NCBI GenBank assembly: GCA_046590205.1
Contig: JBKJTT010000068.1
Coordinates: 4,819-68,818 of the forward strand
Direction: 5' to 3'
DNA length: 64,000 bases
Origin: Candidatus Kapaibacterium sp.
GTDB lineage: Bacteria; Bacteroidota; Ignavibacteria; Palsa-1295
Position 1 is the stretch's first letter. The number at the start of each line of letters is the position of its first letter. Shown one piece after another: positions 545-48,761 of the stretch. Position numbers and translations under genes: made by a program. A model generated the notes under the pieces. The model was given only the letters and a program-made list of their open reading frames with translations. It had not been told where the DNA came from and made no database searches.

Positions 545-1378
545 TTAGTTTGCTTTGGTAGCACCTTCGAGCGACTTCATGCTCTTCTCGCGTTGTAAGT
601 TCTTTTTGAACGCCTTGAGATAATCAACAAGTGATGCGATCTCTTCGTCGTTAAGCGGTCCTTTGTGTTTGGTATGGAATCCGGGCATGTTTGAGTTCGG
701 GATACCATCACGGATGATCGTTGTCCACGATTTTTCATCATGGTTCATCATTGCATCAGATGCGATGTCGGCACCCGGCTTGTGTTCAGCAGCAGAACCG
801 TGGCAAAGAGCGCAGTCTGCTTCATAAAGCTTTGCGCCAAGTTCGCCTTTGCCTTTATCAACGTGGCATGATGCACAACTTCCTTCAAAGACTTTCTGAA
901 TTGACATTGCTTCACCCGCATGTGCAGTCGATGACTTGAAGATCGTACCTTGAATACGAAGTGTCTTCTGGGCGCCGTTAACAGCATTAGAGACAACAGT
1001 AATGGTCTTGACCATCGGTCCTTCTGCTTTGTTATGAGCATCAAAGGTGATCTTCAAGCGCGATTCCTGATTCGGAGCAAGTTTTTTGTTGTCAAGGACA
1101 GCCGCTGTGCATCCGCAAGACGGGTTTGCGCTAATGATCTCGAGCGTATCAGTGCCAACATTTTTGATCACAAACGTTGTAACTACATCTTTATTCTGCT
1201 CGATCTTCCCAAAATCATGCGTCTCCTCGTTGAACTCGATCTTCGGTCCCTTCATGGAGTCAGCAGGTGTAAAGAAACCGGCAACAGCCGAGCGAAGCTC
1301 AAACGAGGACGGACCGTTCAAGAGGACAAATGCCGCGATGGCAATAACCGCAGCGAAAAGTGCAAAAGTACGTTTCAT
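545..1378 (-). CDS. Lipoprotein-type DUF1573 domain fused to a c-type cytochrome domain (two CxxCH motifs)
   Basis: An N-terminal signal peptide is followed by the DUF1573 signature (HDFGKI...NVGTDTLEI...PSCGCT). The C-terminal region contains CASCH and CALCH haem-binding motifs. Confidence 0.7.
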   Translation of the reverse strand: MKRTFALFAAVIAIAAFVLLNGPSSFELRSAVAGFFTPADSMKGPKIEFNEETHDFGKIEQNKDVVTTFVIKNVGTDTLEIISANPSCGCTAAVLDNKKLAPNQESRLKITFDAHNKAEGPMVKTITVVSNAVNGAQKTLRIQGTIFKSSTAHAGEAMSIQKVFEGSCASCHVDKGKGELGAKLYEADCALCHGSAAEHKPGADIASDAMMNHDEKSWTTIIRDGIPNSNMPGFHTKHKGPLNDEEIASLVDYLKAFKKNLQREKSMKSLEGATKAN

Positions 1379-1510
1379 AGAGGCAGTTGAGTAAATTTAA
1401 CGTAAAGTGTTTAAATGTATAACGCTTAAGAAAGGTTTCGGTTACACATGGAACAGACTATTGGCCAGATAAGTTATACATAGCAGATACAGAAAGGAAT
1501 CCTGCCCCCA

Positions 1511-2809
1511 TTGAGAGAGAATTTTGAGTTTTTCTCGACACATAAAGAACGCGAACGCGCCGCTATCGTGTCGCTCATACGCCAATCCGACGAATCCGGT
1601 CGCCTTGCCGCGAAAGAACATCTTGATGAATTAGAACGACTTGCAGATACTGCCGGAGCCGATGTGCTCTACCGGATGACGCAAGAACGTCCGCTCCCCG
1701 ACGGCGCAACCTACCTCGGAAAAGGAAAAGTAGCCGAATTGAAGACTCATGTAGAGATGAACGAGATCCAGCTCGTCCTCTTCGATGATGACCTTTCACC
1801 CGTCCAGATACGCAATCTCGAAAAAGAACTTACGGTAAAGGTACTTGACCGCTCCGGTCTTATCCTCGATATTTTCGCATCCCGCGCCCGTACCCGCGAA
1901 GCAAAGACGCAAATAGAGCTTGCACAGCTTGAGTACTTTCTGCCTCGCTTGACCCGTCAATGGACTCACTTATCGAAGCAGTTCGGTGGTATCGGTACAA
2001 AAGGACCCGGTGAAACGCAGATCGAGACGGATAGACGTATCATCAAAACACGTATCATCAAGCTTAAAGAAAAACTTAGTGAAATTTCGCGTCAACAGTT
2101 GACTCGTCAAGAAGGAAGAACAGACGAACTTGCACGAGTTGCTCTCGTCGGTTATACCAACGCAGGCAAATCTTCGCTTCTGAATGCTCTTTCACTCGGT
2201 GATGTGTATGTTGAGGATAGATTATTTGCAACACTTGATGCGACAACACGCGCAGTTGAGCTTAGCCACGGAAAAAAGATATTACTTACTGACACGGTTG
2301 GGTTCATACGCAAACTCCCAGCAAAGCTTGTCGCTTCGTTCCGTTCGACGCTTACCGAGATCGAGAACGCCGATATACTTCTGCATACTGTCGATGCAAA
2401 CCACTCCGATATCGACGAACATTTAGAGGTCGTTGAAAAAACACTTTCTGATCTCGGTGCAAGCGAGAAACCGACGATCCTCGTCTTGAATAAATGCGAT
2501 CTATTGCCAAAGGAAGAGAGACCTAACTTCGAGGAGCTTCGCAGCCGCTATCCACACATGGTGATGATAAGCGCATTCAAAGGTTACGGTATCACTACGC
2601 TCAAGGAGGAGATAGAAAATGTACTTGGCGAATCATCTTCGTATATGGAGGTTGAAGTGCCGATGGATAAGTATGAGATCGCTTCACGACTCCACGAACT
2701 TGCCGAAGTAACCGAACGCAAATTCACTGACACGACAGTCACGATGAAGCTATCGGTACACAAACGGAATAAAGAGAGAGTGCAAAGACTTTTGGCGAAA
2801 GCAGCGTAA
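1511..2809 (+). CDS. hflX: GTPase HflX
   Basis: The HflX N-domain and G-domain motifs are present (GYTNAGKSSLLNAL, DTVGF, NKCD) and the sequence is collinear with E. coli HflX. The ORF opens with TTG at 1511, so the true start is uncertain (an in-frame GTG near 1569 is also possible). Confidence 0.85.
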   Translation: MRENFEFFSTHKERERAAIVSLIRQSDESGRLAAKEHLDELERLADTAGADVLYRMTQERPLPDGATYLGKGKVAELKTHVEMNEIQLVLFDDDLSPVQIRNLEKELTVKVLDRSGLILDIFASRARTREAKTQIELAQLEYFLPRLTRQWTHLSKQFGGIGTKGPGETQIETDRRIIKTRIIKLKEKLSEISRQQLTRQEGRTDELARVALVGYTNAGKSSLLNALSLGDVYVEDRLFATLDATTRAVELSHGKKILLTDTVGFIRKLPAKLVASFRSTLTEIENADILLHTVDANHSDIDEHLEVVEKTLSDLGASEKPTILVLNKCDLLPKEERPNFEELRSRYPHMVMISAFKGYGITTLKEEIENVLGESSSYMEVEVPMDKYEIASRLHELAEVTERKFTDTTVTMKLSVHKRNKERVQRLLAKAA

Positions 2810-4572: not shown

Positions 4573-6399
4573 TTAAAATCCGGCCGCAACTGCCTTCGTG
4601 CCGCCTCCTGATGCTCCGCGGATCTTCCAGAGAGCATGGATGAAACCGGGACGGACAGGATGCCATGATACATTATCAAACCTATTGACCCAAGCGACAG
4701 GTGTTTGGGGAGTCCAAAGGATAGTGATCGGCTGATCGTCGTAGAGCACTTGCTGAAATTGCTTTTGAAGTTCGATGCGAGTTGCTTCGTCAAACTCTGC
4801 ACGAATACCTGTGAGCAATTCATCAGCACGTTTACTTGCATATTGCGGATAGTTCGAGCCGCGGTTACGCCCCTGCGATGAATGATAAAGTTGGTAGTTA
4901 TCGGATTCAAACGGATCGCTCTGCCATGAACCATACGATGCGTCAAAGTTATGGTCACGCTGACGGTCAAGGAAGATAGACCACTCGATAGGCGCAACTT
5001 CTGCCTTGATACCAACCTTACGAAGTGATTCGGTGATGATAAGAAGAATTTGTTTTCTTGTCTCATTACCTGCATTGACCATGAAGGTAAAACTGAACGG
5101 TGTTTTCTTACCGCCGATAGTTTTATCAAGGATACCGTCGCCGTCGGAATCAACCCAGCCCGCATCGGTCAGAAGCTGTTTTGCTTTTGCAACATCGTAC
5201 TCGATAGTTGCAAGGTTTGAGTTATACTCCTTGCGGGATTCTGAATTTGGAGATTGCGTTAATTTGGCTAACCCATACAGTACTTTATCAATGATCGTTT
5301 TTCTATCAATAAGATGCGACATCGCCCAGCGAACTTTGGAATCGTTAAAGAACTTGCTTTTATTATTCCAGTTGATAAGCGCATACGAGGAAAGCGGGAA
5401 TGTCGTTTTGCTGATATGCTTCGCTTGATTCGTATCAACTTTAACGTAGTACGGCGGCTGCAAGAATCCGATGAGGTCAATGTCCTGCGCCTTGAGTGCT
5501 GTAACTGTTGCAGCCCAATCACTGATGACCTTATAAATAAGGGTATCAGGAGAAACTTCACCATACTTTGAACCGCTTCTATTTACATAGTTTGGATTAC
5601 GCACAAGAATTATGCGGTCATTGGTGCGCCACTCTGCAAGTTTATACGGACCAGAACCCTGAATAAACTTTGGGTCACGACCTGTTTCAGCTGTAGTAAA
5701 ATACTCTGCGTATTCTTTCATTGCCGGATTGATGTTCATCTTGGCTACTTTGTCCACATCAACTTCTTCACCTGCACCAGGTGCTTCGATGATAGCAGCA
5801 ATATCACCCCATGAATACTTGTCCGTCAGTCCTTTGGGGTCAAAAATATGTTTCGGCAAGATATAAAGAATATCGGAGAATGCCTGCTGAACTGTCAAGA
5901 AGTATGGCTTCCACATTGTGAAGCGAACGCGGTATGGGTCGCCGTCAATGAGTTCGCAGCTATGGATGCCATCAACATAGACTCTCTTCTGGGCACTCAT
6001 GGTATTGAGCGGATTCTTCAGCGACTTCAAACTGAAGATAACGTCAACTCCTGTGAGTTCTTTGCCGTCAGCAAACTTGATGCCTTTGCGAAGTTTGAAA
6101 TCGAAGGTCTTGTGGTCTTCGGATTCGATGGGCATTTCTTCAGCAAGCCACGGGATGTTGACTTCCATCGTTTCGGGGTTGATACGAAGCAGACGCTCGA
6201 AGATCATTTCCTCAACGTATGTTTCGTTGGCTCCGGTTGAGTTCTGCGGGTTGAGTCGTTCAAGCTCGGAGAGGATATGCTCAACGACGCGATTATTGGT
6301 TGAAACTGATTTAGCTTCTCCTCCGCTACCGCCGCCGCAACTGACGAGATAGGAAGCAGAAAGAATTGTGAGAAGAAAGATGCGGAAATTCGTTTTCAT
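4573..6399 (-). CDS. ABC transporter substrate-binding protein, family 5 (peptide/nickel/opine type), lipoprotein
   Basis: A lipobox signal (LVSCGGGSGG) is followed by the overall family-5 binding-protein architecture at about 600 aa. The start is taken at MKTNFRIF (6399). No permease or ATPase genes are adjacent. Confidence 0.65.
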   Translation of the reverse strand: MKTNFRIFLLTILSASYLVSCGGGSGGEAKSVSTNNRVVEHILSELERLNPQNSTGANETYVEEMIFERLLRINPETMEVNIPWLAEEMPIESEDHKTFDFKLRKGIKFADGKELTGVDVIFSLKSLKNPLNTMSAQKRVYVDGIHSCELIDGDPYRVRFTMWKPYFLTVQQAFSDILYILPKHIFDPKGLTDKYSWGDIAAIIEAPGAGEEVDVDKVAKMNINPAMKEYAEYFTTAETGRDPKFIQGSGPYKLAEWRTNDRIILVRNPNYVNRSGSKYGEVSPDTLIYKVISDWAATVTALKAQDIDLIGFLQPPYYVKVDTNQAKHISKTTFPLSSYALINWNNKSKFFNDSKVRWAMSHLIDRKTIIDKVLYGLAKLTQSPNSESRKEYNSNLATIEYDVAKAKQLLTDAGWVDSDGDGILDKTIGGKKTPFSFTFMVNAGNETRKQILLIITESLRKVGIKAEVAPIEWSIFLDRQRDHNFDASYGSWQSDPFESDNYQLYHSSQGRNRGSNYPQYASKRADELLTGIRAEFDEATRIELQKQFQQVLYDDQPITILWTPQTPVAWVNRFDNVSWHPVRPGFIHALWKIRGASGGGTKAVAAGF

Positions 6400-6421: not shown

Positions 6422-6721
6422 ATGAAGTATTATATCATTCTAACAAGCTACGTAGTTCCGCCCGAAATGGTCGTTGAGCATACCCCTGCCCACCGAGCGC
6501 ATTTGGCGGACTATTATAAGAAAGGCATTATGCTCTTCTCCGGACCGATGGAGCCCCGCACAGGCGGCATACTTTATGCCCGAGCAGAGGGTGTTTCAGT
6601 TGTTGAGGAGATGGTATCGGTTGACCCCTTCAAGACGACCGGCTGCGCCAATTTTCAGATAATCGAGATGAAACCTGTTATGTGGGCAGAAGGGCTAAAC
6701 AATTTGTTTGGTACTCCGTAG
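6422..6721 (+). CDS. YciI-like (Dabb-fold) protein
   Basis: MKYYIILTSYVV...HRAHLADYYKKGIMLFSGPM...VDPF resembles YciI-family proteins of about 99 aa. The start is placed at the internal ATG at 6422 because the longer ORF would overlap the divergent upstream gene. Confidence 0.55.
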   Translation: MKYYIILTSYVVPPEMVVEHTPAHRAHLADYYKKGIMLFSGPMEPRTGGILYARAEGVSVVEEMVSVDPFKTTGCANFQIIEMKPVMWAEGLNNLFGTP

Positions 6722-6730
6722 GCATTATCA

Positions 6731-7630
6731 ATGCACACTGCTATTGATCATCTCCAACCGGAAATTGCGTCTTCTTTAGGCAACTTTGAGCTTGTCGCGA
6801 AGTTCGTTGTCGAAGGGTTTATTACAGGACTACATAAATCGCCGTATCACGGATTTTCTGTCGAGTTCGCACAGCACCGCCCATATATGCCGGGAGATGC
6901 GATTCGCAATATAGATTGGAAGCTCTTCGCTCGGACAGACCGACACTTCGTAAAGCAGTTCGAGGAAGAGACGAATCTGAAGGCACATATCATACTCGAT
7001 ATTTCGCGCTCGATGAATTATACGAGCGGCAAACACATCACGAAGTACCGCTACGCTTCGATACTTGCTGCTTCACTTGCATATCTTCTGATTCGTCAGC
7101 AGGATGCCGTCGGGCTTGGCTTGTACGATGAGGAAGTAAAGCTTTTTATGCCTGCACGGCTCAAGACAAGTTACTTGCGCGAGATACTCAAGGCAATCCA
7201 AACGGCAGAGCCCTCGAATAAAACAAAGACTGCATCAGCGTTACGCTCATTACTCGAACGGCTTAAACGACGCGGTCTTGTTATTGTCATTAGTGATTTT
7301 CTTGGTGATGCCGATGAGATTATCACATCACTCAAGCTCCTGCGTCATGCCGGACATGAAGTGATTGCATTTCAAGTGCTTGACCCCGTCGAGAGAAACT
7401 TTGCTCTTGATGTGAGCGATGCAACTATCGTTGATATGGAAACCGGTGAATCGCTAAAAACACAGCCGTACCAATTACAAGAAGCGTATCGTAAGGCAAT
7501 GGGAGAGCACATCGAGAAGCTCCGTCATGAACTTGCCAACGAGAGGATAGATTATCTGCTTATTGATACAACTATTCCGTTCGATATCCCTTTACGGGAA
7601 TATCTCTACAAGCGACAAATGTTATTGTAG
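6731..7630 (+). CDS. DUF58 (vWA-like) domain protein
   Basis: The DUF58 signature is present: HGFSVEF...YMPGDAIRNIDWKLFARTDRHFVKQFEEE. Confidence 0.75.
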   Translation: MHTAIDHLQPEIASSLGNFELVAKFVVEGFITGLHKSPYHGFSVEFAQHRPYMPGDAIRNIDWKLFARTDRHFVKQFEEETNLKAHIILDISRSMNYTSGKHITKYRYASILAASLAYLLIRQQDAVGLGLYDEEVKLFMPARLKTSYLREILKAIQTAEPSNKTKTASALRSLLERLKRRGLVIVISDFLGDADEIITSLKLLRHAGHEVIAFQVLDPVERNFALDVSDATIVDMETGESLKTQPYQLQEAYRKAMGEHIEKLRHELANERIDYLLIDTTIPFDIPLREYLYKRQMLL

Positions 7631-9307: not shown

Positions 9308-9699
9308 ATCCTTTTTGCCGTCCGGTTAAAGATTTATTTGAATTGAGTACTTTTTGAGTAGTGGGAAGTACTTAATGTAGAGGTATATTTGCATTGTATA
9401 TAATGCCATGTATAACAATATGATAACCACACAAATAGGTGCACCTTCAAGTAGTATGGAATTCGTATTCCTTTGGTGTACAGATAATGAAGCGGTGTAT
9501 GATCTAGGATAATGATTAAACAGCCATGTTTCTTGAGTGGGGGTGAGACCCTTTTTTAGAGATATAGAATACACGCTTCGTATGAAAACGCCCGATGATA
9601 TATCCAAGGAACTTGGAAATGTCATCGGGCGTTGTATTGATTGTGAGACTTATAGGTGTAGGGGGGTTCCATTTAGGCCCTTTGTATCTAGAGTCAAGG

Positions 9700-10901: not shown

Positions 10902-10920
10902 TAACTGAAAAAATAGTAAA

Positions 10921-10949
10921 TAAAAAAGGCAGCTATTCGCTGCCTTTTT
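10921..10949. terminator. Bidirectional intrinsic terminator between the convergent M24 peptidase and lipoprotein genes
   Basis: aaaaaaggcagc tattc gctgcctttttt is a perfect stem flanked by an A-tract and a T-tract. Confidence 0.7.
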
Positions 10950-10952
10950 TAT

Positions 10953-11339
10953 TTAATTAATCACGAGGGTATCCCGCACCGTATCACGCAAGAACCCTTT
11001 ATAAAAATCCGGCTTCTCGAGCGCAAGCCAGCTTGTGTAGGTCCCGAGTGCTAACCCCGTTGGATGAGCCGTCACTTTTATCGGATGGGAGGAGATTGTA
11101 TCCCCTTCGGTTGCAAGATTATATTTAATGATCGATGTATCCCCTGCCCCTGCAATAAATACGGGGAACGGGCAGCCGCAGGTAACGACGGAGTTTACAG
11201 TACGAGTTGAGTCTGTTGCACGGAGGGTAGTTTTGGATGAATTATGCACGAGCATATTTTCCTCCGGCTCCGAAGCAGTCGGTGTGCAGGCAGCAAAAAA
11301 TGCTGCCGGTAGAAGTATGAGGAGAACTGATCTTTTCAT
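10953..11339 (-). CDS. Hypothetical lipoprotein
   Basis: A signal peptide with a lipobox (FFAACTP) is present. There is no recognisable domain. Confidence 0.5.
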   Translation of the reverse strand: MKRSVLLILLPAAFFAACTPTASEPEENMLVHNSSKTTLRATDSTRTVNSVVTCGCPFPVFIAGAGDTSIIKYNLATEGDTISSHPIKVTAHPTGLALGTYTSWLALEKPDFYKGFLRDTVRDTLVIN

Positions 11340-11399: not shown

Positions 11400-12155
11400 A
11401 TGCTCGTTACTACTGACGCTATAGTTCTTCGCTCGCGCAAACAGGGGGATACCTCGAAGATATGTGCTATCTATACAAAGGAATACGGGCTGGTTGATGT
11501 CATCGCAAAGGGTGCAAGAGAAATGAAATCCAAGTTTGCCGGTTCGCTCGAACTTTTTATGCACATCACCGCCGTGTTCTATAAAAAGCAAGGCAAAGAA
11601 CTGTATCTGCTGGCAAAAGCAGAGAATGTAAGCCGCATGTCGGGTATTACGAACTCGCTTGCAAAGATAGAATCTGCGACAAAGATTGCCGAGCTGCTGC
11701 TAAATACCCTCCATGACGAAGAAAAGAACCCAAAACTTTTTACATTACTTTCGGCGACATTTGAAGCGATCTCCGCTGCCGCGACCGACGATCACGCTCG
11801 CTCGTTCTTATTCAGCTTTTATAATGAATTTGCAAAACTTGGCGGATTTGAGTTACACATCCCCGCCGAGATGCCACAAGGAAAGTACCCTGTCTTCGAG
11901 ATAGAGAAGGGCTGCGTCCTGATGATGGATTCCCCAATGACTGCTGAAAGCCGCTTTTATCTCCCGATAAGTCCGGAAGTCTGCGCTATCCTCCGTTTCT
12001 ACCAAAATAACGACGACCCCACGAAGGTGAACTTGAAAGTATCCGAGAATGCCGGCTTTATGCTCGAGCGTCTCTTTGCCGCGTATTTCTCTGCCCACAT
12101 AGAAGCTATCGGTAATAAAAAAAGCAAAAGCACGAAAGTATTTGCGAGCATGTAA
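11400..12155 (+). CDS. recO: DNA repair protein RecO
   Basis: The N-terminal OB-fold region (AIVLRSRKQGDTSKICAIYTKEYGLVDVIAKGAR) and an overall length of 251 aa are consistent with RecO. Confidence 0.8.
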   Translation: MLVTTDAIVLRSRKQGDTSKICAIYTKEYGLVDVIAKGAREMKSKFAGSLELFMHITAVFYKKQGKELYLLAKAENVSRMSGITNSLAKIESATKIAELLLNTLHDEEKNPKLFTLLSATFEAISAAATDDHARSFLFSFYNEFAKLGGFELHIPAEMPQGKYPVFEIEKGCVLMMDSPMTAESRFYLPISPEVCAILRFYQNNDDPTKVNLKVSENAGFMLERLFAAYFSAHIEAIGNKKSKSTKVFASM

Positions 12156-12181
12156 CTCGTTCTTTCGGCGGTACGTAAAAG

Positions 12182-13999
12182 ATGGCACATCGGCATGTTG
12201 GTCTATGTTATACACGTCCTAAATTACTACTACTGTTGGCTGATATTTTTATTTCATACTCCCGAAAAGATGCCGAACTGGCTATTGCGCTTGCCGAGCG
12301 GCTGCGTGGGACCGGTGCAACCGTTTGGATGGACACCGTTGCCATCGTGGCAGCTCAAACCTGGAGCGCGGAGATCGTGAATGCGATAAAAGAATGCAAG
12401 GCACTTGTGGTCTTGCTTTCTCCTGATTCTGTCGCATCACAGAATGTAACAAAAGAGGTCGCGCTTGCATCCGAAATGCGAAAGATCATTGTCCCTGTTA
12501 ATATAAGTGAATGCGAACTCAACGATGCAATGATCTATGCGCTTGCCGGACTGCACCGCATTTCCTATCATGATGAAGAGGCACTCTTGCGTTCGTTCGA
12601 GAAGCATGGGTTTGGTAATAGAGGAGCGGAAGTAAGTCCATCAGAACCGAAAGAACCGACTGAAGCTCGCACTGACAGAATGGAATGTGTCCGTCCCACT
12701 ACTCTGCACGTTGCCGTGCTTCCATTCGATGACCTATCTCCATCAAAAGATAATGACTGGTTCGCCGATGGGATGATGGATGAGTTAATTACTACATTCG
12801 ACTCGCTTGATACAGTAGTAGTCTGCCCTCGTACAGATGTGCTTTATTACAAAGGGAAACATCCGAAGTTACAAGAGATAGTCGATGATCTGGGTGTCAC
12901 TCATGTCATCGAAGGGAGTGTGCAGAAGATACTTGAGAAGATACGTATCAATGTGACGCTCACTGATGCGCGAAAGAATCAGCGGGTCTGGAGCGAAACG
13001 TATCAGGGTACGTTCGATGATGTATTTGAACTGCAAGATAAAACATGTTTTGCTATCACCGAAGCATTGCGTATCAGCTTGACCCCTGAAGACGAAAAGA
13101 AAATAGAACGCAAACCGACTGATAACACCGAAGCATACGAGTTACTTTTAAAAGCAACTGAGTATTACTATAGACAAACACGCGCCGACTATGAACATGC
13201 GTTGCAGCTCTATGAAGTTGCCGCAAAGCTTGACCCGCTTTGCACTCCGGTGTTTTCTGGTATAGCATCCTCGTCGCTCGAACTCTATAAGTCGTACTCA
13301 CATGATACGGCTGATCTGAAAAAAGCAGAAGACTCTATTGCTAAGATGACTGCCATCGAAGGAGAGACTGCCAGATCACTTCGTTTGATAAGTAATATCG
13401 AGTCATTGCGCGGCAACAACGAAGAAGCGCTTCGGTATGCACAAAAATCTCTTCAACTTGACCCGGACTATTCACCCGCATATCAAGCACTTGGTCTATC
13501 TCTAACGGCGCTTGGTCGTCTGGGCGAAGCTGCCGATGCCAGAGAGCGGAACGTGCAATTGACCATCAATAGTATCCACGTTCACTTTGGGTTGCTCATT
13601 GTGCTCGATCAACTTGGGGACATGGCGCGTTTGCAAGCAGCAGCACTTCGGGCTATACCCTTTTATGAAAAACATGTTCGGTTCAATCCCGATGATGTCA
13701 ATGCACAAGTGCAATTAGCAATGGTGTTGTACTTTGCGGCACGACCTGAAGAAGCAAAACTAAAGGCAGATGAGCTTGTCCTCGAGAAAACAATTGACGG
13801 CAATGCTCTCTATAATCTTACATGTCTCTACCTAAAACTAACAGACACCTCTCGCGCACTTGCAACATTTCGCCGAAGCATCGAAGCCGGATTTACCGAC
13901 ATCAAACTCTTCCGCACCGACCCCGATCTCGCACTCCTTCGCGAAAGCCCGGAATTTGAGCTGTTAGTAGGAGAGTTGGAAGAGAAGATAGCCACGTAG
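12182..13999 (+). CDS. TIR domain / TolB-N-like / TPR repeat protein
   Basis: An N-terminal TIR domain (DIFISYSRKD...VWMD...LLSPDSVASQNVTKEVALA) has a candidate catalytic Glu in the KEVALA stretch. The middle segment resembles the TolB-N-like module seen in TPR signalling proteins. The C-terminal half is TPR repeats. There is no Walker A motif and no transmembrane segment. Confidence 0.7.
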   Translation: MAHRHVGLCYTRPKLLLLLADIFISYSRKDAELAIALAERLRGTGATVWMDTVAIVAAQTWSAEIVNAIKECKALVVLLSPDSVASQNVTKEVALASEMRKIIVPVNISECELNDAMIYALAGLHRISYHDEEALLRSFEKHGFGNRGAEVSPSEPKEPTEARTDRMECVRPTTLHVAVLPFDDLSPSKDNDWFADGMMDELITTFDSLDTVVVCPRTDVLYYKGKHPKLQEIVDDLGVTHVIEGSVQKILEKIRINVTLTDARKNQRVWSETYQGTFDDVFELQDKTCFAITEALRISLTPEDEKKIERKPTDNTEAYELLLKATEYYYRQTRADYEHALQLYEVAAKLDPLCTPVFSGIASSSLELYKSYSHDTADLKKAEDSIAKMTAIEGETARSLRLISNIESLRGNNEEALRYAQKSLQLDPDYSPAYQALGLSLTALGRLGEAADARERNVQLTINSIHVHFGLLIVLDQLGDMARLQAAALRAIPFYEKHVRFNPDDVNAQVQLAMVLYFAARPEEAKLKADELVLEKTIDGNALYNLTCLYLKLTDTSRALATFRRSIEAGFTDIKLFRTDPDLALLRESPEFELLVGELEEKIAT

Positions 14000-14036
14000 C
14001 AAATCACAAAAATCCAATAACCCCATTAACCCGACG

Positions 14037-15809
14037 CTACCTCCCCACCATCTTCTTCAAATCCAACGACCAAGGCGTAACTGCTGCGCCTTGCTTGATG
14101 ACGTTCACACTTGCGCGCCAGCCGTCGGCAGGACAGGAGAGAGCAATATGATACGCTCCCGCAGGAAACGAACTCATATCTACTGCATACTGATGTAACC
14201 CATCAACATCGACTACCTCTTCACGAAGTACCGTTACTCCGATGCTGTTGAATACACGTAACTCAAGTATACCTTTTGTGCAGTTCTCAAATGTAAGGAC
14301 GGTCTTCTGATCGAGTGGGTTGGGTGAGGCATAAAGTTGTGTGGCCTGAAGCTTTTTCAGTTCTCGATCGGATGCTATGTTATTCAGATGTACCGGTATC
14401 TTCGAGGTACCATGCAATACGGCAATATATCCTACATCATCCCAGTCACGGTCAATATCTCTCTGGATTTTTGCGCAAGGATTTCCAATAATAATATCCT
14501 GCATATTATCACTGTCGGCAGTCAATGTATCGGGAACTCCACAATCATATTCTGACTGATAGTACATATCAATCTTATCGTTCATTGCATCACCGAGCAC
14601 ATAGAATGAATGAGTACCTGTAAAACCTGAGTAACTACTTCCACCACTATGTAATACACGATTTCCTGTACCCGTCATATCACCCATATCCCTTAATGCT
14701 TGAAAAGAGAAAATACCTTTAAATTGTGAATTGTACTTTGATGGTTTCCACATGAAGAAATCAGGCTTGTCTATCATTAGTCGTTTTTTCCCGAAATCAG
14801 GACCACCACGATAAATCCATAATGATTTTGTACTATCGTTGTCTGTCCCAAAAGATGGCATGAGATCAACCGAATGGTCATTTGGATCATTTCTTCGGTA
14901 AGCTTGCATTGTAAAAAAGAATGGAGACCAACTTCCCGAATCTAACCCATGCAGTTTCGGATTTTCATGCCGAGATAATAATGTATCAAAACGGATAGCA
15001 TTTGCAAATTTTTCCATGTTGAATGGGGGATCATTCTCATAAAAATACCCATTACTATAATAATCAAAGAAGACCGCGTCTGTTCTTCCTGAATTTCGGA
15101 AATCCGCATATGTACCATATCGACTGAATTCAAGTGAATCATATCTACCAAGACTCATTGCGGAATCATGTGTCACCATTTCTCCTGGATGATAGAGTGA
15201 GGAGCCACCTTTATACAACACAACATATGTGGTATCTCTATATCCAGGATTTCCTGTACCAACCATAAATAGTATGTCATCAACAGTATCAGAGGTAAGG
15301 CGAGCTACATAAGAAAGTGGAAAGGACATCCGGTCTATCGTCCAATCACTTTTCAAATTATATCGTAGCGTAGTAAATCGGGTTCTATTAAATCTACCAT
15401 TGTCGTCAGCCCAGAAAATAGTATCATATTGTTCGCCGAACACTATGACATCTGTATGCTGAGTATCTCTAAAGTGAGCAAACTTATAACTAGTCCCTAT
15501 CCAACCTCTGAAATCAAGATCTGTTTCTTCAACATTTTGGAGATCGTGAATATCAAGATCAGTACTAGTGCTAAAACTGCTAAAGATACCTAAATGCTTT
15601 GGTAAGCCATAGCTAATAATTCTTCTGTTATTTTCCCCTGGAAATTGCGGAATGTTATTTGTATAGCCGCCAAGTTCTTGTTGGTTTCTACTGCCATAGA
15701 CTGTATCAATATCTACCCCTAAAATAGGGTAAAAACAACCACTTTCAAACTGAGCATGAGCAATTCCCGCAGAAAGAACAAGATATGCTGTAATAATGAG
15801 TACTTTCAT
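14037..15809 (-). CDS. Hypothetical secreted protein with a T9SS C-terminal sorting domain
   Basis: The signal peptide is MKVLIITAYLVLSAGIAHAQ, with the start at the internal ATG 15809. The C-terminal region matches the Por/T9SS sorting-domain pattern (LYASPNPLDQKTVLTFE...GAYHIAL...), followed by a 17-aa tail. Confidence 0.6.
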   Translation of the reverse strand: MKVLIITAYLVLSAGIAHAQFESGCFYPILGVDIDTVYGSRNQQELGGYTNNIPQFPGENNRRIISYGLPKHLGIFSSFSTSTDLDIHDLQNVEETDLDFRGWIGTSYKFAHFRDTQHTDVIVFGEQYDTIFWADDNGRFNRTRFTTLRYNLKSDWTIDRMSFPLSYVARLTSDTVDDILFMVGTGNPGYRDTTYVVLYKGGSSLYHPGEMVTHDSAMSLGRYDSLEFSRYGTYADFRNSGRTDAVFFDYYSNGYFYENDPPFNMEKFANAIRFDTLLSRHENPKLHGLDSGSWSPFFFTMQAYRRNDPNDHSVDLMPSFGTDNDSTKSLWIYRGGPDFGKKRLMIDKPDFFMWKPSKYNSQFKGIFSFQALRDMGDMTGTGNRVLHSGGSSYSGFTGTHSFYVLGDAMNDKIDMYYQSEYDCGVPDTLTADSDNMQDIIIGNPCAKIQRDIDRDWDDVGYIAVLHGTSKIPVHLNNIASDRELKKLQATQLYASPNPLDQKTVLTFENCTKGILELRVFNSIGVTVLREEVVDVDGLHQYAVDMSSFPAGAYHIALSCPADGWRASVNVIKQGAAVTPWSLDLKKMVGR

Positions 15810-15868
15810 CTCTATAAAGACACGCGAGAATCCAAATGGATGCGTAGTGTCAGGGCAAAAATACGTCA

Positions 15869-16048
15869 TATCGTAGGGGCTCGCCGGTGGCGTGCCTGTT
15901 TTCAGCTCCGATAGAAGTTACGTTTCGCTCCTACGGAGCTCTGGAATGTTGCGGATACTTTTCCAGGGGCTCACGCCCCTGGCTACCGACGTGCCGCTCC
16001 TATCGGAGCTAAGGGGGCAGGGCACGCCACCGGCGAGCCCCTACGATA
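15869..16048. repeat. GC-rich nested palindromic element (MITE-like, or a structured RNA or operator) in the 770-bp divergent intergenic region
   Basis: The outer inverted repeat tatcgtaggggctcgccggtggcgtgcctg (15869-15898) pairs with cagggcacgccaccggcgagcccctacgata (16018-16048), about 30 bp with one indel. TA dinucleotides flank both ends. Inner hairpins are cagctccgatag/ctatcggagct, gctcc-tac-ggagc and ccagggg-ctcacg-cccctgg. An internal direct repeat is cgctcctacggagc / cgctcctatcggagc. Confidence 0.6.
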
Positions 16049-16578
16049 GGTGCCTATGGGAATTGGCGAAAGCGGGGCAAAAACGTGGATTTCGGATATC
16101 CCCAAAGATTATCTTGTTGTTAATCAATAAGTTAGCGTGAATTTTTGGCGGACATCTTGCAAAACGTCAAATAATTTCGTAAATTTGCATGTCGGAGTTT
16201 GTCGCTCGTGGATTGTGATTCGTCGAAAATGCGGTTTTCCGATAGATTCTTCCATATCCAGATTCCTCATTTCGCTTCGCTCCATACGGAATGACGTCCC
16301 CGAAAACTAAAGCATGAACGTCTGCACCCCTAAACGTCCATTTCCCCTATATGTGTAAATTCTTAGCACCATCCCTGCAACCTACTACCCGTAACCTCCA
16401 ACCCTCATTAAAGTGGGGAAAAGTGGAAGAGGAGTGCACAATTAGAGTGTTGATTTATATGGGACTTACGAGGGAAAGTTGCGGAAAGTAAGGGCACAGA
16501 ATTATCCACACATTTTCCCCAAGATTTTTTGTAACCTTTTGGGAAGATAAGTGTCCTTTATATAGAGAATCTTACGAA

Positions 16579-17256
16579 ATGTCATTACTTACCTTACATA
16601 AAGAAGAAGAACAGGCATTAAAGCAGCCGAACGGGCAGCCACAGGGACCTACAGAACAGGACCGTCTGGACTTTGCTACCTACACTGCTTTTATTAAGGG
16701 TGATGACAAAGCATTTCTTCAGCTTTATAACCGCTACGAAGCGCCCCTTTTGCTCTATTGCCGTAAAATGTGTGCCGATAGCCGTGTCGCCGAGGACTCG
16801 TTCCAGGAGACATGGATGCATATTTTCGAGCTTCGCGGCAAGACAACAAGTTTGGCTAATTTCCGCCCGTTCCTCTTTCGCACAGGTCGGAATGTCTGCC
16901 TCAATAAAATGCGGCATGAGATGGTTCGAATTCGCAGGTCGGTTGAGTTAACCGATGAAAGCGCAAGCGTTTCGTACCAATCGGAATCTGAGCAGGAAGA
17001 GCTTCGCCAGCTTATTTCACGCGCACTGAGCAAACTGCCGATCGCCGAGCGCGAGGTATTTGTACTCCATGAGTACAGTAATTTTCATTATCATGAGATC
17101 GCATCGATCTTAGGTCGAAGCGATGCAAGTATCAAAACACTTGCCTTCAGGGCAAGAACCCGTTTACGAAAAGTGGTTTCAAGCTGGCTTGGTCTTGGCG
17201 AAGAAGCAGACCCGGCGGCACATAATCAGTTGTTTGCCAAGCTATGGAAGGAATAA
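16579..17256 (+). CDS. RNA polymerase sigma-70 factor, ECF subfamily
   Basis: Region 2 (DSFQETWMHIFE) and a region 4 helix-turn-helix (LPIAEREVFVLHEYSNFHYHEIASILGRSDASIKTLAFRARTRLRK) are present. Confidence 0.8.
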   Translation: MSLLTLHKEEEQALKQPNGQPQGPTEQDRLDFATYTAFIKGDDKAFLQLYNRYEAPLLLYCRKMCADSRVAEDSFQETWMHIFELRGKTTSLANFRPFLFRTGRNVCLNKMRHEMVRIRRSVELTDESASVSYQSESEQEELRQLISRALSKLPIAEREVFVLHEYSNFHYHEIASILGRSDASIKTLAFRARTRLRKVVSSWLGLGEEADPAAHNQLFAKLWKE

Positions 17257-43704: not shown

Positions 43705-45897
43705 TTATGCTTCTTCGGTGACCACACTATTCGCATAGTCAAATGCCCTGACGAACCTGAGGTGTTCATACCCAAATTTTTCTTTATCGAGAATCGCCAT
43801 CACGGGAGAAAGAGCATTCATCGAACCAACTTTCTTAAATGCTTCGCGAATTGCATCTATCTTATTTGTATCAATGAGACGGTCAATATCATCGACCTCA
43901 CCCTCTGCTATAAAACCTTCGAGATGAGTTGCAATAGTCGATACAGCAAGCCCGCGTATCTCCGCAATCTCTTTTAGGGAATGACCTTTTTGAAATAAAG
44001 ATTTTGTCAGACCTGCAGTAGATGGTATTGCCGGCGGAATATATGGGTCAACAGTTCTATTGTCCGGTTTTACAACTTCATTTATAACAGCGACAAATGC
44101 CGCAGCATAATGCTTCTTCTTGACTTCACCAATGCCCGTCATCTTCCCGAACTGCTCCTCTGTCCGTGGCAACTTGACGGTCATCTCACGAAGAACCGAA
44201 TCATGGAAGATCACATACGGCGGTACATTTTGTTTATTAGCAAGTTCTTTACGAAGTGTACGAAGTGCTTCGAATAGCTTTGCACTTAGCTCCGATAGAT
44301 CAGCTGTTACTGTTCGAGATGGTCCTGCGGCTCGTTCCTCTTTGGTCTTCCTCGTCTTAAGAGGTGGCGGAGGAAGTGAGATAGGCGAACGGTTGACAAG
44401 GGCTTCATTACCTTTTGTCGTCAACTTCAACGCACCGTATTCTTCATCGCGAATAATATATTCTTCAGCTTCAAGTTCTTTTGCAATATGCTGCCACTGT
44501 GGCTTCTTATACTCTTTCCCTATTCCAAACGTAGTAAGCTTATGATGCCCGTTATGAATAATTCTATCTTCTTTGTCATTACCTGTCAAAACATCTGCGA
44601 TGTATCCTGCGCCATATCGCTGTGAAGTACGAATGATGGTCGAAAGGAATTTCTGCGCTGCAACGGTAAGGTCTGCCGTTTCTTTTTTCTCGCCAGAGCC
44701 GAGGCAGTTATCACATGCTCCACAATTATCTGTCGGCTGTTCCTCCCCGAAATACTGTAAGACCATTTTTCTTCGGCAGGTACGAAGCTCGGCATATTTA
44801 CAGATCAGGTCAAGATTTGCAAGGTTGTTCTTGACGATATTCTGCGGCAGTTTGTCATTCTGGATAAGACGTGATATTTTTATCTTGTCGCCTGCGGAGT
44901 AAAAGAGAACGCAATCCGATGGTAGCCCGTCGCGCCCCGCGCGACCAGTCTCCTGATAATACCCTTCCAAGTTCTTTGAAATATCATAATGCACGACGAA
45001 CCTGACATTCGATTTATCAATGCCCATTCCGAATGCAATAGTCGCGCAAACGATATCAACTTTATCGCGAATGAAATCTTCCTGATTCTTGCTTCGCTGC
45101 GCCGACGTCATACCCGCATGATAGGCAACAGCACGGTAGCCACGAGAAGCGAGACGCTCGGCAATACCTTCGGTCGAGGCGCGGGACATACAATAGATAA
45201 TACCCGATTCACCTTTATGCGTCTCCAGGAATCGGAGCAGGTCATTGAACGTATCGCCTTTCGGCTGAACCGAATAGATAAGATTCGGACGATTAAAACT
45301 TGCCTTATAGCGCGAACCATGTTTACCGATGCCAAGTTGCTCGACGATGTCATTAGCAACTCTCTCTGTCGCCGTTGCCGTCAACGCCATAACAGGCACA
45401 TCACCAAACTTCTTACGAACCATCGCAAGCTGACGGTACTCCGGACGGAAATCATGTCCCCATTCGCTGATACAATGCGCTTCATCAATAGCGATGAAGG
45501 CAACATCAAGCGTACTTAGAAAACCCAAGAAGTCCGGCATAACAAGCCGCTCCGGCGCGCAGTAGAGAATCTTTACCGCACCGCGACGGATGAGGTCTTT
45601 TCGATGCGAAACCTCCTGCGGATCAAGCGAGCTATTGATGAATGTAGCCGGAATGCCAAGCTCATGCAGACTATCCACCTGATCTTTCATCAGCGCAATA
45701 AGCGGACTAACGACGATGACAAGTCCCTTCGTCAGCAGTGCCGGAAGCTGGTAGCAGAGCGACTTTCCGCCGCCAGTCGGCATCAGGACAAAGACGTCCT
45801 TGCCCGCAAGTATATCTTCGATGATCTCGCCCTGCAAGGGTCGAAACGAAGTATAGCCGAAATACTGCTCTAATGCTTGTAGGTGCCTATCATCCAT
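43705..45897 (-). CDS. recQ: ATP-dependent DNA helicase RecQ
   Basis: Helicase motif I (MPTGGGKSLCYQLPAL), a DEAH box, RQC Zn-binding cysteines and a C-terminal HRDC-like region are present. The length is 730 aa. Confidence 0.85.
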   Translation of the reverse strand: MDDRHLQALEQYFGYTSFRPLQGEIIEDILAGKDVFVLMPTGGGKSLCYQLPALLTKGLVIVVSPLIALMKDQVDSLHELGIPATFINSSLDPQEVSHRKDLIRRGAVKILYCAPERLVMPDFLGFLSTLDVAFIAIDEAHCISEWGHDFRPEYRQLAMVRKKFGDVPVMALTATATERVANDIVEQLGIGKHGSRYKASFNRPNLIYSVQPKGDTFNDLLRFLETHKGESGIIYCMSRASTEGIAERLASRGYRAVAYHAGMTSAQRSKNQEDFIRDKVDIVCATIAFGMGIDKSNVRFVVHYDISKNLEGYYQETGRAGRDGLPSDCVLFYSAGDKIKISRLIQNDKLPQNIVKNNLANLDLICKYAELRTCRRKMVLQYFGEEQPTDNCGACDNCLGSGEKKETADLTVAAQKFLSTIIRTSQRYGAGYIADVLTGNDKEDRIIHNGHHKLTTFGIGKEYKKPQWQHIAKELEAEEYIIRDEEYGALKLTTKGNEALVNRSPISLPPPPLKTRKTKEERAAGPSRTVTADLSELSAKLFEALRTLRKELANKQNVPPYVIFHDSVLREMTVKLPRTEEQFGKMTGIGEVKKKHYAAAFVAVINEVVKPDNRTVDPYIPPAIPSTAGLTKSLFQKGHSLKEIAEIRGLAVSTIATHLEGFIAEGEVDDIDRLIDTNKIDAIREAFKKVGSMNALSPVMAILDKEKFGYEHLRFVRAFDYANSVVTEEA

Positions 45898-48644: not shown

Positions 48645-48708
48645 TCGGTAGTCTTTAGTCGTTAGCAAGTAGAAGAACTCTGCATTTTACTAACGACTAA
48701 AGACTACC
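48645..48708. repeat. Perfect 20-bp-stem inverted repeat related to the palindromic element at 2813-2995
   Basis: cggtagtctttagtcgttag (48645-48664) pairs with ctaacgactaaagactaccg (48689-48708) around a 24-nt loop. It shares the tagtcgttag and ctaaagacta cores with 2826-2839 and 2976-2985. It lies in a divergent promoter region, so it is not a terminator. Confidence 0.6.
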
Positions 48709-48761
48709 GATTAACGACTATATTTGTTGTATCTTTGTACTCTATATCTGCAAAATACACC

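Follow-up and report, generated by a model that had tools for sequence, protein, structure and literature searches.

A GC-rich nested palindrome upstream of an ECF sigma gene in Candidatus Kapaibacterium is very probably a REPIN-like dimer of GTAG-tagged REPs

We analyzed a 64,000-nucleotide stretch of Candidatus Kapaibacterium sp. (contig JBKJTT010000068.1, positions 4,819 to 68,818; hereafter the window), focusing on a nested palindrome at window positions 15869-16048. This element lies between two divergent genes—on the minus strand, a gene for a protein with a type IX secretion system (T9SS) tail, a weak assignment, and on the plus strand, a gene for an extracytoplasmic function (ECF) sigma factor starting at 16579. 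With the start of the T9SS-tail gene at 15809 as first placed (the longest open reading frame, or ORF, extends to 15869), the two genes are separated by about 770 bp, the long divergent gap that an earlier note on this DNA had pointed out. The parts of the element are listed below in the terms of the interpretation that we favor, in which two repetitive extragenic palindromic (REP) units, each headed by the tetranucleotide GTAG, face each other across a spacer and form a REPIN, that is, an inverted REP doublet.

15869..16048, unstranded: whole element, a head-to-head (GTAG-outside) REP dimer or REPIN-like nested palindrome, including a 3-4 bp extension TATC...GATA; supported by inverted arms, folding on both strands, and a GC island
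15873..15897, plus strand: left REP unit, GTAG + GGGCTCGCC-GGT-GGCGTGCC(T), with a 9-bp stem containing one T.T mismatch; supported by sequence reading, exact 24-25-mer matches elsewhere, and covariation over 24 variants
16020..16044, minus strand: right REP unit, an inverted copy reading GTAGGGGCTCGCCGGTGGCGTGCCC on the minus strand; GTAG-headed hairpin with a 9-bp stem, 3-nt loop, and one mismatch
15898..16019, unstranded: structured, lineage-specific spacer of about 122-124 nt between the REP units; its inner hairpins have no match in about 90 fetched loci
15904..15917, unstranded: 5' half of a second-tier stem pairing with 15997-16010 (14-nt inverted repeat, 93% complementary)
15927..15939, unstranded: small hairpin GCTCC-TAC-GGAGC
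15963..15986, minus strand: central hairpin CCAGGGGC-TCAC-GCCCCTGG (15963-15982), GTAG-headed on the minus strand as GTAG-CCAGGGGC-GTGA-GCCCCTGG; a third REP-like unit within the spacer, overlapping a sub-threshold match to the Rfam family Acido-Lenti-1
15996..16010, unstranded: small hairpin GCTCC-TATC-GGAGC (15996-16009) that doubles as the 3' half of the second-tier stem and is a near-direct repeat of 15927-15939
15892..16140, plus strand: 82-aa ORF across the element, spurious as already called in the earlier note, with no Pfam match and no homologue among 5.8 billion proteins searched

An inverted-repeat search recovered two arms of 28 nt each (15869-15896 and 16021-16048) that are 100% complementary and separated by 124 nt, and the second-tier repeat nested inside them; the description of a nested palindrome with terminal inverted repeats thus held. 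The arm 28-mer is present at just two window positions, the arms themselves, and two matches were found in none of 100 shuffles. That the arms are perfectly complementary suggests that this copy is young or was homogenized recently. The element also outranks every other GC island of the window, with a GC content of 0.63-0.67 versus 0.455 for the window and a 120-nt maximum of 0.667 versus a mean of 0.455 (sd 0.053), in agreement with the GC richness claimed earlier. Predicted folding of 15869-16048 gave -124.8 and -118.8 kcal/mol on the two strands (z = -11.5 and -12.7 against dinucleotide shuffles), a symmetry of the kind given by a DNA palindrome. Finally, a scan for GTAG-headed GC-rich hairpins returned three in the entire window, two of them inside the element, while 20 shuffles gave 0-2 and mostly none.

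The anatomy of the arms can be compared directly with published definitions. GTAG-tagged REPs are described as GTAG followed by a short stem-loop, forming head-to-head (HH) dimers with 20-100 bp spacers that may themselves bear stem-loops, and flanking genes for REP-associated tyrosine transposases (RAYTs; PMC3733652); REPINs are inverted REP doublets that form hairpins (PMC3116915), and on single-stranded DNA, GTAG and an irregularity in the stem are the determinants of recognition (PMC8266576). Each window arm reads C-GTAG-GGGCTCGCC-GGT-GGCGTGCCC—GTAG, then an imperfect 9-bp GC-rich stem closed by a 3-nt loop—with both GTAGs on the outside (15873-15876 on the plus strand and 16044-16041 on the minus strand). 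The REP unit measures 25 nt, and the doublet spans 172 nt from GTAG to CTAC. Two inverted REPs with a spacer, predicted to fold as a single hairpin, are the REPIN arrangement, and because this anatomy fits the published definitions (PMC3733652, PMC3116915), we take the arms to be GTAG-tagged REPs and the pair to be an HH dimer or REPIN. The window copy is extragenic, lying between divergent genes, and copies at other loci (L077, L088-L090, L009, and L018) likewise sit between called genes or start codons.

We then searched for family copies elsewhere. An 18-mer from the arm, GTAGGGGCTCGCCGGTGG, scanned against one genome per species, returned 22 loci, each with a single match, about the number expected by chance and mostly in coding regions of GC-rich genomes. 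True relatives among them were L006, L009, and L018, in which 25-26 nt of the arm are exact, along with partial matches at L002, L013, and L022. Carriers of the exact arm were a Bacteroidetes metagenome-assembled genome (MAG; L006) and two contigs of one Ca. Kapaibacterium MAG (L009 and L018), and relatives with small changes came from Rubricoccaceae and two Chloroflexota (three loci). In L006, the same two arms enclose just 21 nt, giving a 72-nt doublet; in L009, the partner of the arm is a different hairpin that opens with the same TATCGTAGGG. Across all loci, the 24-25-mer of the window arm was exact in L006, L009, L018, L082, L083, and L088-L090. Viral contigs scanned with a 24-mer of the arm yielded no matches.

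A metagenome scan with the pattern GTAGGGGCNCGCCGGTGGCGNGCC, in which two mismatch positions were left free, matched 54 contigs, about 30 of them from a single metagenome, Ga0070698. Arm pairs among these loci formed 23 doublets, or 44 under a looser definition (38 distinct, head-outside) with lengths of 50-188 nt, and 126 arms in 24 variants were collected. GTAG was invariant in all 24 variants, a result to be read in light of the fact that the capture pattern itself required GTAGGGGC; a less constrained line of evidence comes from a scan for GTAG hairpins in the flanks of RAYT genes (below). The Ga0070698 copies are ~125 nt long and ordered as arm, inner hairpin, variable center, inner hairpin, and arm, the same nested plan as in the window with other inner sequences. 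Spacers of other family doublets vary by lineage, and the hairpins of the window spacer were found in none of about 90 fetched loci, nor was a second copy of the full 180-bp unit; judged from these comparisons, the window spacer appears to be lineage-specific, as described for REP dimers. Many single arms sit at contig ends or beside a decayed partner. As a separate observation, many of the Ga0070698 doublets in L028, L030, L031, L043, L049, L050, L061, and L076 lie within a further outer palindrome, CGGTCCG(ATCG)...(CGAT)CGGACCG. As has been reported for some GTAG families, this arrangement suggests either that palindromic sites are favored as targets or that the doublets belong to a longer composite element.

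Covariation was examined across the 24 distinct arm variants at three central stem pairs that the capture pattern left free. These pairs vary on both sides—CTCG/CGTG, CGCG/CGCG, CACA/TGTG, CAAG/CTTG, CATG/CATG, and CGAG/CTCG—and compensated cells numbered 14 versus 3.1 expected, a value reached in 0 of 500 shuffles. Paired cells amounted to 96%, versus 18-55% in controls in which the partner was slid. Because stem changes in the arm variants are compensatory, the small single-REP hairpin, and not merely the long arm-arm duplex, is the unit under selection or constraint. Such a constraint fits the recognition of folded single-stranded DNA by RAYTs (PMC8266576).

The association with RAYT genes was direct: in four of four contexts examined, a RAYT (HUH/Y1, IS200-like) gene was flanked by family arms. 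In L044, a 204-aa ORF (1280-1894, minus strand) with the motifs VVMPNHLHGIL (HUH) and DYIRSNP (Tyr) lies exactly between two 151-nt family doublets. This ORF scores 27.1 bits on Pfam Y1_Tnp, above the cutoff of 23; within NCBIfam, it matches a single family, 'REP-associated tyrosine transposase' (67.8 bits, E = 9e-19), and its sole match in the Protein Data Bank is the E. coli TnpA_REP structure 4ER8, a weak one (E = 1e-4). The label 'REP element-mobilizing transposase RayT' is widespread among its 606 homologues, and MPNHxH and the catalytic Tyr are invariant across the clade. L044 was reached through a weak phmmer match whose seed was the sole regular-expression match for the RAYT C-terminal motif, in L008; L008 itself was set aside as a chance-match locus with no REP arm.

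Contexts were fetched for three further members of the clade, and all are flanked by GTAGGGGC-type hairpins. P0003 (L082/L083), whose JGI name is 'REP element-mobilizing transposase RayT', has at least seven flanking copies of the window arm with 0-1 mismatch, T.T mismatch included, some of them identical to the arms of the window. The P0005 RAYT (L077-L081) is flanked by ~135-nt doublets with stem-variant arms, the outer ends of which read TATCGTAGGGGC with a TATC prefix like that of the window, and the arms flanking the P0008 RAYT (L084/L085) are a shorter-stem variant. At three sites (L077 3516-3519, L082 2355-2358, and L083 674-677), gene end and repeat overlap, such that the RAYT stop codon TAG is also the TAG of the downstream REP's GTAG head. 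Separately, the relative whose sigma gene is 87% identical has a RAYT-like Y1 gene at L091 3700-4345 (157 aa, HUH motif VVMPDHVHLLI) with a different hairpin on either side, GGCACGGACTTTAGTCCGTG upstream and GTAG-AACGGAC-TTTA-GTCCGTT downstream. This gene is missing at the syntenic window site 6711-6747 (36 bp versus 605 bp), and in L018, the family arm is adjoined by a similar hairpin, GGGACGGACTTCAGTCCGTCCC.

Comparison of orthologous loci provided a view of the element's position among relatives. An exact look-up of the sigma protein gave no record, and a homology search recovered orthologues of its gene at 97, 87, 84, and 77% identity. In the 87% relative (L087/L091), the distance from RecO to the downstream sigma gene is 222 bp and no arm is present in the intergenic region; compared with this relative, the window has a TIR-TPR gene, the T9SS-tail gene, and a long spacer inserted between RecO and sigma. 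In the 77% relatives (L088-L090), the upstream region of sigma has a single exact arm at a distance of about 85 nt, together with part of an inner hairpin; the window carries the full doublet about 530 nt upstream, and the contig of the 97% relative (L086, from the ERR15009262 population) ends about 140 bp short of the element. This polymorphism in presence and position at the orthologous locus speaks for a mobile element and is no more than suggestive of the doublet as the replicative unit. Independent assemblies at L086 and L090 (position 1 of each) both break about 385 bp upstream of sigma, as would be expected if repeats in the intergenic region defeat short-read assembly.

The same comparison bears on the first alternative, that the palindrome is a large operator or cruciform regulating the ECF sigma operon or the divergent T9SS-tail gene. 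Its placement in a divergent intergenic region and the presence of same-family arms upstream of the orthologous sigma gene in L088-L090 would fit such a role, and matches to TAnnTTTG, the Bacteroidetes -7 box, flank the doublet at 15856-15863 (minus strand) and 16180-16187 (plus strand), the former facing the T9SS-tail gene only 6 nt from the left end of the element. However, of the non-coding sequence upstream of sigma, only one block is conserved in all four lineages (16516-16565, CCCCAAGATTTTTTGTAACCTTTTGGGAAGATAAGTGTCC), and it lies about 470 nt from the doublet, which makes an operator role for the sigma operon, raised in the earlier note, unlikely; in addition, the 87% orthologue has its 222-bp intergenic region without an arm, arm position varies among lineages, and the same arms occur beside unrelated genes in dozens of contigs. 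Overall, we consider the operator reading very unlikely. The conserved block contains an ECF-promoter-like AAC-N17-GTC and looks like an autoregulated ECF-type promoter, as judged from its motif. The remaining about 450 nt (16049-16500) recur only in the closest relative and account for much of the unusual length of the gap. Insertion of the doublet may have pushed the upstream (-33) portion of the T9SS-tail gene promoter out of place, and a secondary, incidental effect on that promoter may exist.

The interval from RecO to the ECF sigma gene is itself a variable islet (window 11400-16578; L087 5023-6000; L088 1-3643; L089 2685-6000). Its cargo in the window comprises a TIR+TPR gene (12182-13999) and the T9SS-tail gene (14037-15809, minus strand), and in other relatives, a gene with an ADP-ribosyl-toxin domain, or an outer membrane protein (OMP) beta-barrel gene with a beta-lactamase. 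The islet may be a hot spot for defense genes or other cargo.

A second alternative is a structured small RNA (sRNA) transcribed from the intergenic region, either a 6S-like closed hairpin or an Acido-Lenti-1-type sRNA. Consistent with this idea, the predicted fold is very stable, and positions 15963-16010, covering the central GTAG-headed hairpin and the next hairpin, resemble Rfam Acido-Lenti-1 (RF01687) at 28.9 bits (E = 3e-4), below the cutoff of 37. On the other hand, the Rfam covariance search found no family at gathering score in the region or the whole window, 6S RNA included, the other sub-threshold matches in the region were weak miRNA/snoRNA ones, and the Acido-Lenti-1 resemblance was absent from 20 related family loci. 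Moreover, the two strands are equally stable, which holds for any DNA palindrome; the spacer, where RNA-specific structure would be expected to reside, varies among family members; and the conserved part is instead the GTAG-tagged arm that flanks transposase genes. The RNA alternative of the earlier note is thus unsupported, and we regard it as most improbable. A preprint reports Acido-Lenti-1 matches near protease genes in Tannerella, and as a speculative lead, what the Rfam motif describes could be a piece of REP-type repeat DNA and not an sRNA.

The third alternative was the leading idea of the earlier note—a miniature inverted-repeat transposable element (MITE) of the IS630/Tc1-mariner type, in which a DDE transposase would bind the 28-30-bp arms as terminal inverted repeats and the TA at each end would be a target-site duplication. 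The window copy does have perfect terminal inverted repeats with TA on both sides, and the arm family is multi-copy, as an IS630 MITE would be. However, TA was found at the corresponding position in only 5 of 87 arms, and on both sides in at most 2 of 38 distinct doublets. Likewise, no target-site duplication of 2-8 bp rose above chance at five boundary offsets across the 38 distinct doublets, which is the expectation for single-strand transposition by HUH/Y1 enzymes. The only conserved flank position was the base immediately 5' of GTAG (C in 52 and T in 26 of 87 arms; C or T in 78). In the window, the TAs are simply the outermost letters of the palindrome (TATCGTAG...CTACGATA) and belong to the extension TATC...GATA, which recurs at some family ends, including the outer ends of the RAYT-flanking doublets in L077; the TA flanks are thus real, but their meaning as a duplication is not borne out. 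Genes between or beside the arms are HUH/Y1 RAYTs, not DDE transposases (no IS630-like gene was seen beside family arms, in a search that was not exhaustive), and covarying GTAG-headed hairpins are needless for terminal inverted repeats of the DDE type. While IS630/Tc1-mariner MITEs resemble this family in being small, non-autonomous, and multi-copy with terminal inverted repeats, the family differs from them in its self-folding GTAG hairpin arms and in the lack of a TA duplication or associated DDE transposase. We therefore retain from the leading idea a multi-copy, non-autonomous mobile element, given the dispersed arms and the RAYT association, and reject the IS630 assignment as extremely improbable.

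A fortuitous or locally made palindrome without a family, for which the single copy in the window might speak, has a negligible probability given identical 24-26-nt arms in many unrelated contigs and genomes. A retron non-coding RNA, prompted by the terminal inverted repeats and the neighboring TIR-domain gene, was also dropped, as there is no adjacent reverse transcriptase and the arms are GTAG REPs.

Taken together, the REP anatomy, dispersal, doublets, stem covariation, arm-flanked RAYTs, lack of target-site duplications, and positional polymorphism make it very probable that the element is a head-to-head dimer of GTAG-tagged REPs, a REPIN-type non-autonomous mobile element. By analogy with the systems of E. 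coli, Stenotrophomonas, and Marinomonas, each arm would fold into a small hairpin on single-stranded DNA, for example on the lagging-strand template, and a RAYT supplied in trans would recognize GTAG and the irregular stem in a strand-specific manner (PMC8266576). The enzyme would then cleave at a nearby CT/CA dinucleotide, and the doublet would be excised or re-inserted without a target-site duplication. The window doublet would be a passenger between divergent genes, any effect on expression being a side effect and not the reason for its presence.

Several points weigh against the REPIN-type interpretation. The window holds a single doublet, and the evidence for multiple copies comes from metagenome contigs for which membership in a single population is assumed. 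The spacer of 122-124 nt exceeds the usual 20-100 bp and contains extra hairpins, including a third GTAG-headed unit, so that the element could equally be named a small REP cluster or a bacterial interspersed mosaic element (BIME). No RAYT gene was found in the 64-kb window by tblastn with 40 clade members (best E = 0.25) or with the L091 Y1 protein, and the L044 RAYT falls under the strict NCBIfam equivalog cutoff (67.8 versus 80 bits). Transposition and cleavage are, for this family, proposed from characterized systems.

The GTAG-tagged dimer belongs to a known kind of element, that of GTAG REP/REPIN-RAYT systems, and is not a new kind. In common with the GTAG REPs and HH dimers described previously (Di Nocera et al. 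2013, PMC3733652; Nunvar et al. 2010), it has GTAG at one end of a GC-rich stem-loop, GTAG-outside dimers that form one large hairpin, spacers with stem-loops of their own, extragenic locations, RAYT genes flanked by repeats, and sequence families of stem variants. GTAG REPs were found by that 2013 survey in Proteobacteria, Cyanobacteria, Chloroflexi, and the PVC (Planctomycetes-Verrucomicrobia-Chlamydiae) group, and Bacteroidetes and Chlorobi had only CGTC-type REPs (PMC3733652), whereas the family described here occurs in the FCB (Fibrobacteres-Chlorobi-Bacteroidetes) group—the window (with its T9SS-tail gene), the Bacteroidetes MAG, Rubricoccaceae, and Ca. Kapaibacterium—as well as in Chloroflexota and a GC-rich soil organism. 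REPINs of Pseudomonas fluorescens SBW25 (Bertels & Rainey 2011, PMC3116915) similarly consist of two inverted REPs and a spacer that form a hairpin; doublets predominate, a single RAYT gene is flanked by REPINs (here L044 and L077), and singlets look like remnants (here L088-L090). Unlike these, the present family has a different REP sequence and a divergent RAYT clade (E. coli TnpA_REP match at E = 1e-4). The E. coli REP/BIME-TnpA_REP system (Ton-Hoang 2012; Messing 2012, PDB 4ER8; Corneloup 2021, PMC8266576) shares the GTAG head, an imperfect palindrome after it whose stem is irregular, and an HUH/Y1 enzyme with the same catalytic motifs, but the stem here is shorter (9 bp) and has a single mismatch (T.T in the window) in place of the E. 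coli AA/GC bulge. Many variants of the family are perfect palindromes, like group-3 systems.

Other repeats were also noted in the window. The same intergenic region contains a second, unrelated type of hairpin repeat at 16244-16295, AGATTCCTC...variable...CGGAATGAC (full form GTCATTC...GAATGAC), which recurs in L086 (71-111), L044 (250-365), L048 (about 4600-4720), and L058 (914-955) and is probably another dispersed palindromic repeat family. Further features, all unrelated to the REP arm, are as follows.

48645-48710: palindrome with 24-nt arms, 96%
2871-2930: palindrome with 24-nt arms, 88%
9587-9633: palindrome with 22-nt arms
10917-10955: terminator-like hairpin flanked by AT
44922-44945: further GTAG-headed GC hairpin

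For annotation, recognizing the GTAG-tagged dimer allows a spurious 82-aa ORF to be dropped, accounts for a conspicuous GC-rich palindrome and for some of the length of the intergenic region, and replaces the assignment to an IS630 MITE with a directly supported family. It also serves as a warning that sub-threshold sRNA matches inside such palindromes, as with Acido-Lenti-1, should not be taken as regulatory RNAs. The novelty is modest and of a taxonomic and comparative nature—a GTAG-type REP/REPIN-RAYT system in FCB bacteria, with near-identical arms across compositionally distant lineages. The arm consensus, GTAGGGGC-NNN-CCGNTGG-NNN-GCCC, is almost invariant over 25 nt, and some copies are identical including the T.T mismatch, among carriers that comprise a low-GC T9SS-bearing bacterium, Ca. 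Kapaibacterium, GC-rich Rhodothermales-like MAGs, Chloroflexota, and a GC-rich soil organism. Most of what is known about REPIN-associated RAYTs comes from Pseudomonas and Enterobacteria, where inheritance is mostly vertical (PMC5581495), and the prevailing view holds those systems to be lineage-specific as well as vertically inherited. Only tentatively might a single REP/RAYT lineage be common to carriers of such different base composition and apparently of different phyla. If true, GTAG REPIN-RAYT systems would be extended to the FCB group, and such REPtrons (RAYT genes flanked by their own REPs) would either spread horizontally across phyla or be under far tighter constraint than those of Pseudomonas and enterobacteria. 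An arm that is conserved across distant lineages while its stem covaries would, in this respect, offer a natural dataset on which REP positions are read by RAYTs and on the vertical inheritance of these systems.

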